A stretch of DNA of 24,430 nt from a virus (taxonomy: Duplodnaviria; Caudoviricetes): positions 1 through 24,430 of the IMG/VR virus record IMGVR_UViG_3300008007_000061; one strand, given 5' to 3'. Every line of letters starts with the position of its first letter. Positions within the stretch are counted from its first letter, which is position 1. Made by a program: the position numbers and the translations under genes. The notes beneath the pieces were generated by a model. It was not told the origin of the DNA, did not search any database, and saw only the letters and a list, made by a program, of their open reading frames with translations. This document shows positions 16,656 to 21,171 of the stretch, in pieces.

Positions 16656-17630
16656 TCAGGTTTTTGTGTTGTTTTTTTCAGCTATTCTCTCTCTTTCTTT
16701 GAGGAGCTGAATCACTCTGTTATAACTTTCACAACTATCGCCATACTTTTCATTCACCGCTTCAATAAAAGCTTCCAACGTATCATGAAAACATCCGGCA
16801 CAGATTGAACCGTCCGGTTGAACAGTTATAAATCTGTGAAATTCACCGACTGGGCCTAACATTAAAATTTCACCGTCTCCGGTATCTGTTCCAGTACAAT
16901 GAAGCATACCAACAACTTGTCGGCTATTACCCGTTTGTTGGCTATCACCAAACTGTCGGCTGTCACCGTACTGCTGGCTATTTCCAAACTGTTTGCTGTT
17001 TCCAAGCTGTTGACTCGTATCAAACTGTCGACTATTCCCGAATTGCCGACTATCCCCGTACTGGGTGCTATCCCCGTGCTGGCTGCTATTGCCAAATTGT
17101 CTGCTATCACCAAACTGTTGGCTGGTACCAAACTGTTTACTACTACCGAATTGGTGGCTATTAGAAAACTGTTGGCTGTTACCAAACTGCCGACTATGCC
17201 CGGACTGTTTGCTATTCCCAAACTGACGACTGTTCCCGTGCTGTTGACTATTCTCGAACTGCCAACTATTCCCGTACTGTTTGCTGTTACCAGCTTGTTG
17301 ACTGGTATCAAACTGTCGGCTATTATCACACTGTCGACTGTCGCCAAACTGTTGACTATTCCCGTATTGTTTGCTATCACCAGATTGTTGGCTATTACCA
17401 AACCCAACAGAGTTCCCCGATCTATTGGAATTTTGGTAACCAACTGCTTCATCAAAAAGCCAACAATTCCCTTTTTGACTTAAATTCTTTTCTAACTGCA
17501 CCCAACCACCGAGGTCTCCGGCCTTAACTGGTAAATGAATGGTTTCAAAATCTTTTAAAGCTCTGATTCTAAAAACTGTTTCACCGGTTGGCATTACCTT
17601 ACTTTCATTCGTCAATTTATATTTCTTCAT
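16656..17630 (-). CDS. Phage hexapeptide-repeat (beta-solenoid) protein, 324 aa
   Basis: N-terminus KKYKLT...FRIRALKDF..VKAGDLGGW..EKNLSQ.GNCW and C-terminus AGCFHDTLEAF are typical of a phage family with central hexapeptide repeats. Confidence 0.85.
   Translation of the reverse strand: MKKYKLTNESKVMPTGETVFRIRALKDFETIHLPVKAGDLGGWVQLEKNLSQKGNCWLFDEAVGYQNSNRSGNSVGFGNSQQSGDSKQYGNSQQFGDSRQCDNSRQFDTSQQAGNSKQYGNSWQFENSQQHGNSRQFGNSKQSGHSRQFGNSQQFSNSHQFGSSKQFGTSQQFGDSRQFGNSSQHGDSTQYGDSRQFGNSRQFDTSQQLGNSKQFGNSQQYGDSRQFGDSQQTGNSRQVVGMLHCTGTDTGDGEILMLGPVGEFHRFITVQPDGSICAGCFHDTLEAFIEAVNEKYGDSCESYNRVIQLLKERERIAEKNNTKT
16914..17435 (-). repeat. About 29 tandem 18-bp (6-aa) units, consensus G-N/D-S-Q/R-Q-F
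   Basis: Direct count from the translation; Ser at position 3 in all units, Gln at position 5 in 27. Confidence 0.92.
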
Positions 17631-17872
17631 CTGTTCTCTTTATTATTCGGATCATCCGTTAACTCAAGGTAAATTTGTAATGTGTGAATGGCCTTTTTAA
17701 TATCAAGCGTTCCGCCCTTGTCACGCTCACGTGCGAGGTAGGCAATTGCCGTTCCCTTAGCAAATCCGCGGAGTTCGTCTCGCGTTAACCACTTTTCCAA
17801 AACTTTCCATGGTTGATAGTCACCGAGTTTCGCATAATGGTCTCCGCCTTCTTGTTGGTTCAGCGCACTCAT
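17627..17872 (-). CDS. DUF3310-family protein (T7 gp1.7/SaV-like), 81 aa
   Basis: QEGGDHY, GFAKGTAIAYLAR..KGG..DIKKAIH motifs. Confidence 0.8.
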   Translation of the reverse strand: MSALNQQEGGDHYAKLGDYQPWKVLEKWLTRDELRGFAKGTAIAYLARERDKGGTLDIKKAIHTLQIYLELTDDPNNKENR

Positions 17873-17895
17873 GCAACCTCTTTCTCCGGCAAGGT
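17832..17895. repeat. 64-bp direct repeat, copy 1 (copy 2 at 18930-18993, 2 mismatches)
   Basis: gcataatg(g/a)tctccgccttcttgttggttcagc(g/a)cactcatgcaacctctttctccggcaaggt. Confidence 0.9.
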
Positions 17896-18066: not shown

Positions 18067-18086
18067 TCCCACACCTTTCTTATTTA

Positions 18087-18110
18087 TTCTACTTATCAGT
18101 AATGTTGTGC
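18087..18110 (+). other. attC right-half/attI-like recombination site, copy 1
   Basis: ACTTATC-AGTAAT-GTTGTGC matches L'-6bp-R' spacing; 20 bp identical to 18998-19017, with identity ending exactly at GTT. Confidence 0.5.
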
Positions 18111-18141
18111 CGAAACCCCGCTTTTGCCCGCGGGTACAAAC

Positions 18142-18167
18142 AAAAAAAGCCCACTTAAATGGGGGCT
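18142..18167 (-). terminator. Probable rho-independent terminator
   Basis: AGCCCCCATTTAAGTGGGC-TTTTTTT after the 18175 stop. Confidence 0.55.
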
Positions 18168-18174
18168 AAGGGAA

Positions 18175-18474
18175 TCAAAGGTATGCACGTAGCGCCTTCA
18201 AGAGCAGCTCTCGAAGTGACGACCCCTCGTCAACGGCCTTGTGTTTTGCTTGAGTCCAGAGGTCTTCCGGGATGTCGCGCAACAGGTAGTTTCCCGCCGA
18301 GTGGGTTTCGCGGGAAAGTCGCCTCGCAATCTCCGTGGCGCTTACCTGTTTGCCCTCTGCCCGCAGGGCGTCAATCTCAATTTGCACATCCTCGGCGCAG
18401 GGTGCGCAGAGCAGCGCCCCGCCAATACCACGGCCACCTTTCAGGGGTTTTCCGCATGCGTCGCAATCTCTCAT
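18175..18474 (-). CDS. Zinc finger plus ribbon-helix-helix (Arc/CopG-like) protein, 99 aa
   Basis: RBS AAAGGAG, ATG 18474; CDAC..CAPC; C-terminal NYLLRDIPEDLWTQAKHKAVDEGSSLRELLLKALRAYL. Confidence 0.75.
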   Translation of the reverse strand: MRDCDACGKPLKGGRGIGGALLCAPCAEDVQIEIDALRAEGKQVSATEIARRLSRETHSAGNYLLRDIPEDLWTQAKHKAVDEGSSLRELLLKALRAYL

Positions 18475-18590
18475 GGTCGTCTCCTTTTTGTAATGTGGGG
18501 GGAGCACTCGACGCCAGCAAGGCGGAAAGCCTGAACCCAGAAGCCATACCCTCCTGTGTTTTTGGGTTAACTCCCCGTCTCTTGATTATA

Positions 18591-18618
18591 AGCATACTCT
18601 TGATAATCAAGATGTCAA
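18591..18618 (-). promoter_or_regulatory. Sigma70 promoter with an operator palindrome in the spacer
   Basis: TTGACA (18618-18613), 16 bp, TATGCT (18596-18591); spacer holds perfect TCTTGAT-n-ATCAAGA; extra half-site at 18580-18586. Confidence 0.7.
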
Positions 18619-18627
18619 CAGAAAAGA

Positions 18628-18834
18628 TCACAAATGAAGCAATCCGCCAGCTATTTTCCTGGCCTCATCGGCAAACCATTGCATACCGCGATGTTCAGCC
18701 ATGTCGGCTAGGATATGCAGCTGCCCCTTTGCCCAGGCATTAACCGTGTGCGAGTTCGCGGCAGTCACCCAGATAAAGTTCAGCTTGTCCAATCGTCTCT
18801 TTGTGCATATTGTTCCTGTCATACGGTGGCGATG
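18628..18834 (-). pseudogene. 3' remnant of an unknown gene fused to duplicated DNA
   Basis: The 5' part of track ORF 18628..18933 is made of repeat copies; only 18628-18834 is unique. Confidence 0.35.
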
Positions 18835-18924
18835 ATGTTTGATCCGTTCTAAAGCCAACCGCGTAAAATCTAAAACAGCTTCTGCTGCGCAGTCTCTCTT
18901 AGTATCCTGGCAAGCGCGGCCTCG
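18835..18924. repeat. 90-bp perfect direct repeat, copy 1 (copy 2 at 19706-19795)
   Basis: atgtttgatccgttctaaagcc...gcaagcgcggcctcg identical in both copies; includes the methyltransferase 3' end. Confidence 0.95.
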
Positions 18925-18929
18925 GCTTA

Positions 18930-18993
18930 GCATAATGATCTCCGCCTTCTTGTTGGTTCAGCACACTCATGCAACCTCTTTCTCCGGCAAGGT
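18930..18993 (-). pseudogene. Truncated second copy of the DUF3310 gene start
   Basis: MSVLNQQEGGDHYAK then runs into the 90-bp repeat and stops. Confidence 0.75.
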
Positions 18994-18997
18994 TTTT

Positions 18998-19021
18998 TTC
19001 TACTTATCAGTAATGTTAAGG
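18998..19021 (+). other. attC right-half/attI-like recombination site, copy 2
   Basis: ACTTATC-AGTAAT-GTTAAGG; the HTH gene stop codon lies within the GTTA. Confidence 0.55.
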
Positions 19022-19213
19022 TGATTCGAGCCGTTTCAGCTTGGCGTAGAGTTCGACCCAGGCAAAAGCAATCGCCCTCGGTGGTCTGCCGTTCGGCCCG
19101 TCATCCTCCCACGTCTGCCAAGTGCGGTAGGGTGTCCCCGTCAACCTGGCGGCTTCTGCCATCGAGAGGCCCGACTTCTGCCGGGCCTCTCTCAGTTCCT
19201 GTTGGCGGGTCAT
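19016..19213 (-). CDS. XRE/Cro-type helix-turn-helix protein, 65 aa
   Basis: LREARQKSGLSMAEAARLTGTPYRTWQTWE; ATGA overlap with the upstream gene. Confidence 0.85.
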   Translation of the reverse strand: MTRQQELREARQKSGLSMAEAARLTGTPYRTWQTWEDDGPNGRPPRAIAFAWVELYAKLKRLESP

Positions 19214-19461
19214 TCCGTCTCTTCCCACTGAAGGTCCCAAGGTCCCCGCCCCCAGCTCAACCCGATAGCCTCTTCAACATCTTCCATCGTTTTTTGATGG
19301 GCGATGGCCGGATCTTCAATTTCTCCGTCCGGCAGTTCGACGCGGATGACGTAGGCTTGCCCGCCGTCCTCGTAATAGTCGCTGTTTTCCAGTTCAGCGA
19401 AAATCTTTCCCCGACCTTCCGTGCCGTCCAGTTCGATGGTGACAATGATTTTCTTTTCCAT
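19210..19461 (-). CDS. Acidic hypothetical protein, 83 aa
   Basis: RBS AGGAGG, first gene after a consensus promoter. Confidence 0.75.
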   Translation of the reverse strand: MEKKIIVTIELDGTEGRGKIFAELENSDYYEDGGQAYVIRVELPDGEIEDPAIAHQKTMEDVEEAIGLSWGRGPWDLQWEETE

Positions 19462-19508
19462 GATGTTCCTCCTGGTTTTGGGTTAGTTTCTCCGCCCTCT
19501 TGATTCTG

Positions 19509-19559
19509 ATTATACGCGCATTGTGCGTTGTGTCAACAATAAAAATGCACATTGCGCGT
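19509..19559 (-). promoter_or_regulatory. Consensus sigma70 promoter with two quasi-palindromic operators
   Basis: TTGACA (19536-19531), 16 bp, TATAAT (19514-19509); acgcgcattgtgcgtt (19514-19529) and an inverted copy at 19544-19559 (14/16 match). Confidence 0.8.
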
Positions 19560-19583
19560 TTTTTTAAGGGCGGTGCAAAATTA

Positions 19584-19651
19584 CCCTAACCAGGCGGTCA
19601 AGCGGATCGGCGCGAAAGGCCGCGCCTCACCGCTTACCTTGATCGTTAGCC
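19584..19651 (+). other. Integron attC site (68 bp)
   Basis: R'' CCCTAAC, 5 bp, L'' GGTCAAGC, central stem (GGCGCG..CGCGCC), L' GCTTACC, 6 bp, R' GTTAGCC; L'' equals the complement of L' plus one extra base. Confidence 0.8.
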
Positions 19652-19705
19652 CTTATCACCAGCAATGAACTCATACTGCTCAAGAACCGTTCGCATCATC
19701 ATTGA

Positions 19706-19795
19706 ATGTTTGATCCGTTCTAAAGCCAACCGCGTAAAATCTAAAACAGCTTCTGCTGCGCAGTCTCTCTTAGTATCCTGGCAAGCGCGGCCTCG
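19706..19795. repeat. 90-bp perfect direct repeat, copy 2
   Basis: Identical to 18835-18924. Confidence 0.95.
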
Positions 19796-20382
19796 AAATA
19801 AGATTGTTCCCGCTCGATTCCGATGAAATCAAAACCAAATCTTTCTGCTGCAATCGCCGTTGATCCGCTCCCTAGAAAAGGATCCATGATTCTCCATCCC
19901 GGCTTTGCGTACTTTTCCAAAATCCATTCAAACAGCCGTACAGGTTTTTGTGTCGGGTGGATCCTCGCCTCTTTGTTCTTCATGTCCTGCTGCAGCATCC
20001 CATTCCAACGAAATTTAAACTTGCGTACCGCCGATGAGAAGCTACACCAAGCAAGTTCACAGTCGGCAAAATCATTTTCTCCATTGTCCTTATCCCACAC
20101 GATCTAACAGGGTGAATTTCTCAGGTGTTCAACAAAGTAATTTCCTCCAAAAATGACTTGATGCTGACTTATCCGCATGATCTCGCTGAAATACTCTGCG
20201 GTTGGTATTGCGTTGTCCCAATCCAAGCAACTATAATCCTTTGCTTTAGCCAGTTGGCCCCTTGACTTGTTCTTTCCTGAAGCCTCGCCAATACCATACG
20301 GCGGGTCAGTGATAATCAAATCAATAGACTTGTCAACCATGAGGCGCATAACGTTCAGGCAATCATCATTGTAAAGTTGCAT
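19741..20382 (-). pseudogene. Beta-class N6-adenine/N4-cytosine DNA methyltransferase interrupted by one in-frame TAG (20106-20104)
   Basis: TDPPYG ... RNSPC*IVWDK ... HPTQKP ... DPFLGSGST; both halves are in frame and the stop sits where TGG (Trp) would be expected. Confidence 0.85.
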
Positions 20383-20392
20383 CTTATTTCCT

Positions 20393-20567
20393 TTACGTAA
20401 ATAATTCTTTCAGGCGGTCTATGACATTTTTATAACTTCCGTATCCTATGCCATATTTATTCGCTATGCCCAAACTGACGACTATTCCAATACTGTTGAC
20501 TATCCTCGTACTGTCTGCTATGCCCAAACTGACGACTATTCTCAAACTGATGGCTATTCCCATACTT
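20393..20567 (-). pseudogene. Relic paralogue of the hexapeptide-repeat gene
   Basis: GNSHQF ENSRQF GHSRQY EDSQQY WNSRQF GHS, then in a shifted frame NKYGIGYGSYKNVIDRLKE (compare EKYGDSCESYNRVIQLLKE). Confidence 0.8.
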
Positions 20568-20795
20568 TTAAAACAACTCTTCTTTCCTCAGCATGAGGCT
20601 CTTCCTGCCAAATTTGGGGTAAATCACATTGTCAGCCAGAATTAAATAAGCGCTGAGCTTTCCCGGCTCATCAAAGCGCTTAACGATTTTACCCTCCAGC
20701 CACACATACGATCTAGTTACGTTGTCCCATGCTTGGAATCCAACGATCTCGCCGATTTTCACCGGCGGGTCTAAAATCTCGTGCTCCATTGCCAT
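20568..20795 (-). CDS. Hypothetical protein, about 73-75 aa
   Basis: RBS AGGAG; start 20795 or 20789. Confidence 0.6.
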   Translation of the reverse strand: MAMEHEILDPPVKIGEIVGFQAWDNVTRSYVWLEGKIVKRFDEPGKLSAYLILADNVIYPKFGRKSLMLRKEELF

Positions 20796-20820
20796 CTCCT
20801 GTTAGGTGCTAACCAGTCAA

Positions 20821-21171
20821 TCAACCATTTTTTTTTGGTGGCCGGCCAGGGTAACAAACCAGCTCGGCCAGATAGTAATTTCGTGAGTGGTTTTTGATTT
20901 TAATCGCGGCGATTAGGCGATCTGGCTGGGGCAAGTTGGGTTTTTTTTCAAGCATGCGACACAGGGTTTCGATGGCGTGATAAACGTCCATGATTTCGCA
21001 AAGGATCTGCGTGAAGGCCCGGTCGATTTCGCCGTTTGTGCTGTCGTCGGGCAGGCTAGCGTAATCGGTCAGGGCTTCGAGAACTTCATCAAATTCGCTG
21101 GTGATGTGGTAGATTTGTTGAGAAATGGTATTTTTCCCAGCAAAAATGGTTGGCGGAAAATTGTAAATCAT
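20821..21171 (-). CDS. MazG-like nucleotide pyrophosphohydrolase-fold protein, 116 aa
   Basis: SEFDEV.EA ... EIMDV ... KNHSRNYY acidic motif spacing. Confidence 0.5.
   Translation of the reverse strand: MIYNFPPTIFAGKNTISQQIYHITSEFDEVLEALTDYASLPDDSTNGEIDRAFTQILCEIMDVYHAIETLCRMLEKKPNLPQPDRLIAAIKIKNHSRNYYLAELVCYPGRPPKKNG

Follow-up and report, generated by a model that had tools for sequence, protein, structure and literature searches.

Phages likely trade accessory genes with the integron, a gene-swapping machinery of bacteria

A 630-bp segment (positions 19016-19645) of a tailed-phage contig is an integron cassette whose genes lie on the bottom strand of its attC site, and it is probably inserted, excised and displaced at G|TT by an integron integrase (IntI) acting on the folded attC. 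The contig, hereafter the window, is the 24,430-nt stretch covering positions 1 to 24,430 of IMG/VR record IMGVR_UViG_3300008007_000061, with an estimated completeness of 57% (CheckV). PHROG and Pfam searches identify, on the minus strand throughout, genes for a lambda-like terminase and portal, a capsid-protease, DnaB and SSB. A weak pointer to a possible host is a 3.6-kb contig, binned with a Desulfuromonas MAG, whose terminase is 81% identical. Positions 16656-17630 encode a 324-aa protein made of 6-residue (18-nt) repeats; around 20393-20563, a related 18-nt repeat is found near 20424-20587, read in another frame.

The attC site occupies 19584-19651 on the top strand, and its canonical nature, including the extra L″ base claimed in the original prediction, is confirmed by the boxes in place, hairpin folding, a structural scan and a covariance match. 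Its inverted boxes follow the geometry R″-5-L″…L′-6-R′ with the conserved AAC and GTT: R″ CCCTAAC (19584-19590), a 5-nt spacer, L″ GGTCAAGC including the extra C, the stem-loop, L′ GCTTACC, a 6-nt spacer, and R′ GTTAGCC (19645-19651), where the crossover would fall at G19645|TT. Folding of the bottom strand gives a hairpin in which the R box is paired, the spacer is open and the L box has a bulged (extrahelical) G, closed by a terminal loop; its folding energy by itself is modest (z -1.9). This is the sole site in the window for a structural scanner, and an equal site arose in 0 of 100 second-order Markov shuffles. The covariance-model check proposed at the outset likewise returns a single match in the window (48.7 bits, E = 7e-9); the model is our own, not that of IntegronFinder, and was trained on 31 of 34 candidate attC sites beside intI in other contigs, chosen for the same geometry, so that the test is not fully independent. 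An Rfam search gave no match, and neither did the exact left arm in the genome contig collection.

The cassette carries its own promoter and two genes, and the claim that both run antisense to the attC holds: everything is encoded on the minus strand, so that the coding strand of the cassette genes is the recombining bottom strand of the attC. The usual cassette polarity, with the gene on the attC top strand, is thus absent, as is expression from a Pc-type promoter at attI, since the genes face attI and the cassette is self-promoted. The promoter (TTGACA-16-TATAAT, 19536-19509, minus strand) matches the sigma-70 consensus at 12/12 positions and lies in a region conserved in homologous cassettes; short repeats around it may be operators of the HTH protein. 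The latter, 65 aa and XRE-like, is encoded at 19016-19213 (minus strand), matches Pfam HTH_31 with an E of 3e-5, under the family cut-off, and has close relatives in three other viral contigs (76-86% identity) and in a few metagenome contigs. Overlapping its start is an 83-aa passenger gene (19210-19461, minus strand), a stretch that does not align among homologous cassettes, in which unrelated genes replace it; it has no PHROG, Pfam or Atlas match and no credible PADLOC match. In part of the population (L210, run X23), another insertion occurs inside this gene at 19377, a non-GTT position. On the left, the core GTTAAGG (19015-19021) agrees with R″ at 3/4 variable positions, in keeping with the near complementarity first noticed, and the homologues in L050 and L052 agree at 4/4. 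The HTH gene and a relic ORF beyond the attC (19646-19702, minus strand), the start of a probable second, decayed cassette, each have their stop inside the TTA of a core, the left core and R′, respectively, as had been described, the relic ORF being just 18 aa long.

The segment had been described as a self-contained cassette; its boundaries stand, but it is not alone, being the first cassette in a small array that has partly decayed and lies at the far end of a phage operon, a locus with one complete attC, one half site and no intI. The left docking site (18994-19017, top strand; crossover probably at G19015|TT) is attI-like, attG-like or a leftover attC right half. It is not classed as attI because, scored with a profile built from 26 candidate phage attI sites, it ranks only 105th among 759 GTT sites, and it resembles the attI of phage contig L206 only if a 2-nt gap is allowed. 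A dif site was rejected by eye, no XerC arm being present. A second copy of the docking site (18083-18106, top strand) is identical at 23/24 nt, differs in the next core (GTTGTGC), and leads into an alternative module (18105-18627, minus strand) with a promoter (18618-18591), an Arc-like gene (phrog_6506, E = 9e-4) and a terminator (18163-18150) but no attC left, so that each docking-site copy is followed by a different promoter-plus-regulator module. Next to it, 18628-18830 is a relic with a methyltransferase-like N-terminus in one frame and the end of another ORF in a second. Duplicated blocks fill 18835-18993: 18835-18924 equals 19706-19795 (90 bp) and 18927-18993 resembles 17829-17895 (67 bp), an arrangement also present in assemblies L001 and L210. 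The pair of docking sites and the duplications probably arose when illegitimate recombination brought two alleles of the locus together. A joint between 19017 and 19706, tried as an excision product, was rejected, as the duplicated blocks explain it. To the right, a DNA methyltransferase gene in two pieces (19741-20382, minus strand), each matching phrog_67, lies inside the probable second cassette, and the left half of a second attC (20807-20826, top strand), read by eye, retains R″ TGCTAAC, the spacer and L″, with the right arm lost. This half site gives no covariance-model match; 18 nt of it are identical to the attC of L050, and its R″ fits the core at 19645 at 3/4 positions. The presence of a half attC here points to the methyltransferase stretch being another cassette, now decayed.

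Homologous cassettes in other contigs share these boundaries. In L050, L051, L052 and L214, similarity to the window starts at the GTTA of the left core beside unrelated neighbours and extends through the HTH gene; it breaks off at the passenger and resumes over the promoter and R″ CCCTAA, which all four retain. To the left lies a full attC in L050 and L052, attI in L051/L206, and unrelated DNA in L214. The cassette is a scaffold of attC, promoter and HTH gene, a predicted autoregulator, around an exchangeable passenger gene. In the phage L046, the 62-nt core of the attC is identical but accompanies a different gene, and the sequence diverges directly after GTTA; L209, a GTDB record, holds a related HTH module between attC sites; L215 and L216 have related HTH modules with no attC match, meaning that the module also exists without the site; and in L045 one gene is present twice, both copies between attC sites. 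The expected alignment of relatives at G|TT is borne out in part: homologous cassettes begin at the same GTTA, but no empty site is seen, the relatives at 42 DUF3310 loci being too distant to display one and only L001, the same phage, aligning across the region.

Junctions share just 3-5 nt (GTT to GTTAG), and R″ varies with the core at the left end of its cassette, not with the one downstream of it. Across 21 cassettes at 8 array loci (one interval at a contig end dropped), R″ and the left-end core match at 73 of 84 variable positions, perfectly in 15 of the 21, whereas R″ and the downstream core match at only 38 of 84; shuffling gives a mean of 45 of 84 and reached the observed value in 0 of 20,000 trials. 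Such tracking is the signature left by excision and re-insertion at G|TT. Paired stem positions of the attC sites covary (119 double changes vs 38.5 shuffled), a partly circular result since the sites were picked for pairing.

Several further features of these loci were noted. Cores resembling attI recur inside arrays (L051, ~2640-2655; L207, ~800-815), and the HTH cassette of L051 ends in an R″/attI hybrid instead of a full attC, resembling the delta-attI cassettes described in PMC12901181. In L390 (2496-2622) and L052 (2280-2365), the start codon of the next gene lies inside the attC loop, and part of the attC would therefore be translated. DNA methyltransferase or Mom-like genes occur within 1.5 kb of an attC in 12 of the 27 viral loci scanned (L057-L097).

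The window arrangement is recovered in Logan contigs of seven runs, in which unitigs branch at the cores, specifically at 19015, 19017 and 19649. It should be noted that these branches are 30-nt overlaps of short contigs, from which full alleles are not readable. In run X1, a branch exits after 19017 into the core GTTGGGC; in X1 and X2, which may be the source samples of the window, a branch enters at 19015 and ends in an attC right arm (in X2, depth 8.7 vs 24.6). This arm is the same as that of the 126-nt attC of phage L390, where a different cassette follows. Given that the cassette unitig 19015-19735 is unbroken in both runs, the branch molecules likely share the right flank of the window. 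In run X23, a branch exits after 19649 into GTTAGGC, and the junction unitigs have depths of 23.6 and 20.3, about half those of the cassette and flanks (40-44). No joint of an empty site or an excised circle occurs in the contigs of the seven runs, which drop rare forms. Branches at both cores, one of them ending in another attC, point to ongoing cassette turnover. The suggestion that this phage lineage exchanges reverse-oriented attC cassettes is accordingly supported by the homologues beginning at the same GTTA, the complementarity of R″ and left core, and these branches.

Cassettes of reversed polarity predominate in phage loci but are seldom seen in bacterial ones. A single degenerate attC pattern was run on both collections, with viral duplicates and short loci dropped. 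By the strands of neighbouring genes with PHROG hits, 17 viral loci are reversed, 1 forward and 2 mixed, with 7 lacking a hit (27 of 41 loci); by those of Pfam hits, 2 bacterial loci are reversed, 20 forward and 3 mixed, with 14 lacking a hit (39 of 58 eligible loci). The ratios, 17:1 versus 2:20 (Fisher p = 4e-8), should be read bearing in mind that the neighbour is not always a cassette gene, that the PHROG and Pfam libraries differ, and that the loci may not all be independent. The published TJE1 array, used as a control, was scored forward by our covariance model, in agreement with its description (PMC9892861). A test based on stop codons (viral: 11 reversed, 4 forward, 7 both, 8 none, 8 short; bacterial: 10 reversed, 31 forward, 4 both, 27 none, 45 short) was noisy, and the strand of family hits was used instead. 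A rule based on ORFs with a ribosome-binding site, which sometimes errs (L284 is called forward yet has a methyltransferase on the reversed strand), gives 37 reversed, 7 forward and 9 unclear viral intervals, or 22 reversed, 5 forward, 1 mixed and 5 undecided by locus, and 6 forward, 2 reversed and 5 unclear intervals at eight bacterial loci. The attC itself lies upstream in normal polarity to intI in 33 of the 61 viral intI loci examined (three plus 58 of 80 that had enough upstream DNA), and promoterless reversed cassettes occur in phage arrays of four to six.

Related phages encode the enzyme. L051/L206 has a 361-aa intI gene near a portal gene, with attI ~50 nt upstream of intI, and the homologous cassette heads the array at this attI. 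The L206 integrase scores 335 bits against the TIGR02249 model (cut-off 265) and has all six catalytic residues, which are invariant in 26 relatives. Its attI core, TAATCAGTAGTTA, is common to L206, L207, L230 and L231, whose sequences differ after the core, L206 and L207 diverging after its GTTA. Integrases above the TIGR02249 cut-off are present in 20 of 22 viral loci with reversed cassettes, and the other two integrase ORFs, with no hit, were probably picked in the wrong frame; many of these intI genes are near terminase, portal or primase genes. In a tree of 39 of 47 sequences (8 dropped for internal stops), 19 phage enzymes form one clade (support 0.81), with five reversed-locus enzymes outside it, three of them among bacterial IntI; the tree is only suggestive, as the genome scan with the integrase alignment covered 1 of 64 parts and yielded few bacterial IntI, just 8 being included. 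A distinct IntI group (proteins P0001-P0017; L206 = L051, 3637-4722), with 65-85% identity, the motif GLRVEVDCL and a C-terminal CPHCG tail, is encoded close to terminase or portal genes in phage contigs. Six contigs (L250, L255, L267, L269, L270 and L302) have a tyrosine- or serine-type phage integrase downstream of intI on the same strand, so those temperate phages carry both enzymes. The GenBank phage Rctr41k (L391; KX853513.1, 4680-5678) has an IntI-like gene annotated as xerD inside an operon, with no attC-model match upstream and two weak matches downstream. For the window, the original prediction had invoked a host or distant IntI, none being encoded. No match to the TIGR02249 integron integrase model is indeed found anywhere in it, but the enzyme need not come from the host, given the integrases of related phages, and because the contig is only 57% complete, intI may lie elsewhere in this phage genome.

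How such a system would operate can be outlined from what is established for integrons (PMC8946536): the bottom strand of attC folds, more readily when it is the lagging-strand template, and IntI recombines this folded form either with attI as double-stranded DNA or with a second attC. In the intact layouts of L206 and about twenty viral contigs, the geometry of intI, attI and attC is normal and only the genes are turned. Operon transcription would cross the cassettes in the direction of attI and then continue into intI. A new cassette would join the array at its promoter-distal end, while a self-promoted one, such as that at 19016-19645, would be independent of position. The window copy, having a docking site without an adjacent intI, would depend on an enzyme supplied in trans, whether by the host, by a co-resident phage or from the portion of the genome that the contig lacks. 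If the operon is co-directional with the replication fork, the coding strand would be the lagging-strand template, and turnover may exceed that of chromosomal integrons. We propose, giving the idea an even chance of being right, that temperate phages run mirror-image integrons of their own, in which a phage-adapted IntI lineage, encoded behind its attI where an operon ends, shuffles a shared pool of reversed cassettes whose folding strand is the coding strand, and that integrase-less phages like that of the window are served in trans, with cassettes turning over in present-day populations.

The window shares with classical integrons, both class 1 and sedentary chromosomal, the attC anatomy, the G|TT crossover and the complementarity of R″ and left core, and in its relatives, as in those integrons, intI points away from the top strand of attC and has attI 30-80 nt upstream. 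Unlike in those systems, phage cassette genes point toward attI and intI rather than away, so that Pc at attI could not express them, and the stop codon in the window lies in the left core, not in R″. Many self-promoted toxin-antitoxin cassettes are antisense to attC. Like the self-promoted toxin-antitoxin cassettes of chromosomal integrons (PMC13108822), that of the window has two genes, its own promoter and an HTH second gene, but its 83-aa gene has no toxin family hit and is freely replaced, and adjacent promoterless phage cassettes are reversed too. Clusters of attC sites (CALINs) and integrons in phages are already known from Qi et al. (2023; PMC9892861), who report recombination of five phage attC sites by IntI1. 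As in the window, the CALINs described there combine attC in a tailed phage with no adjacent intI, often beside DNA methyltransferase genes. In that study, the complete integrons are captured chromosomal or class 1 ones, single sites were excluded by the screen, and the TJE1 array has normal polarity, whereas the genes of the window are on the bottom strand and the intI of its relatives is co-directional with phage operon genes. No account of reversed phage cassettes or of intI within phage operons was found in the literature covered, in which subscription papers are thinly represented. The present locus contributes a family of cassettes that leads to the attI and integrase of a phage, together with population branches at both cores.

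Other explanations have to be weighed against these. A host IntI may have placed a self-promoted cassette one way into an attG-type GTT site of the phage, selection against head-on transcription having retained just those insertions that run with the operon and no phage-level system existing, a scenario we regard as improbable. It draws on the insertions known as SALINs/attG, for which 10.1101/2022.09.11.507474 reports that attG insertion by IntI occurs and that single attC sites are common, and to which the window is similar in its single intact attC, the lack of an integrase nearby and a left junction that is no clear attI. The poor rank of the left site on the attI profile, the self-promoted cassettes of chromosomal integrons (PMC13108822) and the HTH module between attC sites in the GTDB record point the same way. 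Compared with the SALIN/attG cases as described there, however, the left site of the window is reused, as shown by its two copies with different modules and the population branches, and another phage carries the cassette family at a true attI. Moreover, the direction of a gene relative to attC is fixed within the cassette, whichever way the cassette is inserted, and bacterial loci are mostly forward; the promoterless reversed phage arrays and the integrases of the 20 reversed viral loci also argue against capture alone.

An even less probable account holds that the attC sites are fossils reused as homology patches, terminators or translation signals, with modules moving by homologous or illegitimate recombination without IntI. 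Rearrangement of neighbouring DNA at non-GTT positions, namely the duplications and the L210 insertion at 19377, counts against the cassette reading, the local duplications and the half attC show that rearrangement other than by IntI has occurred, and Qi et al. (PMC9892861) suggest off-target and illegitimate recombination for phage CALINs. Against this, junctions sharing so few nucleotides, an R″ that follows the left core instead of its own R′, and the partly circular stem covariation favour IntI. An assembly artefact or chance hairpin is barely credible: the 90-bp and 67-bp duplications could mislead an assembler, but the same arrangement is present in L001, L210 and the unitigs of the seven runs, and the shuffle test and covariance match complete the refutation.

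Thus, phages likely trade accessory genes with the integron machinery of bacteria. Integrons have been treated as bacterial devices, and phage mosaicism is usually credited to homologous or illegitimate recombination; if the proposal is true, a site-specific and reversible system would be a defined route by which methyltransferases and small accessory genes pass between phages. The polarities of attC and gene, coupled in bacteria, come apart in phage cassettes, and the role of strand exposure by replication or transcription in cassette turnover therefore becomes testable. The locus supplies a cassette family that can be traced, a candidate for the cognate integrase together with the attI of that enzyme, and populations with varying junctions.
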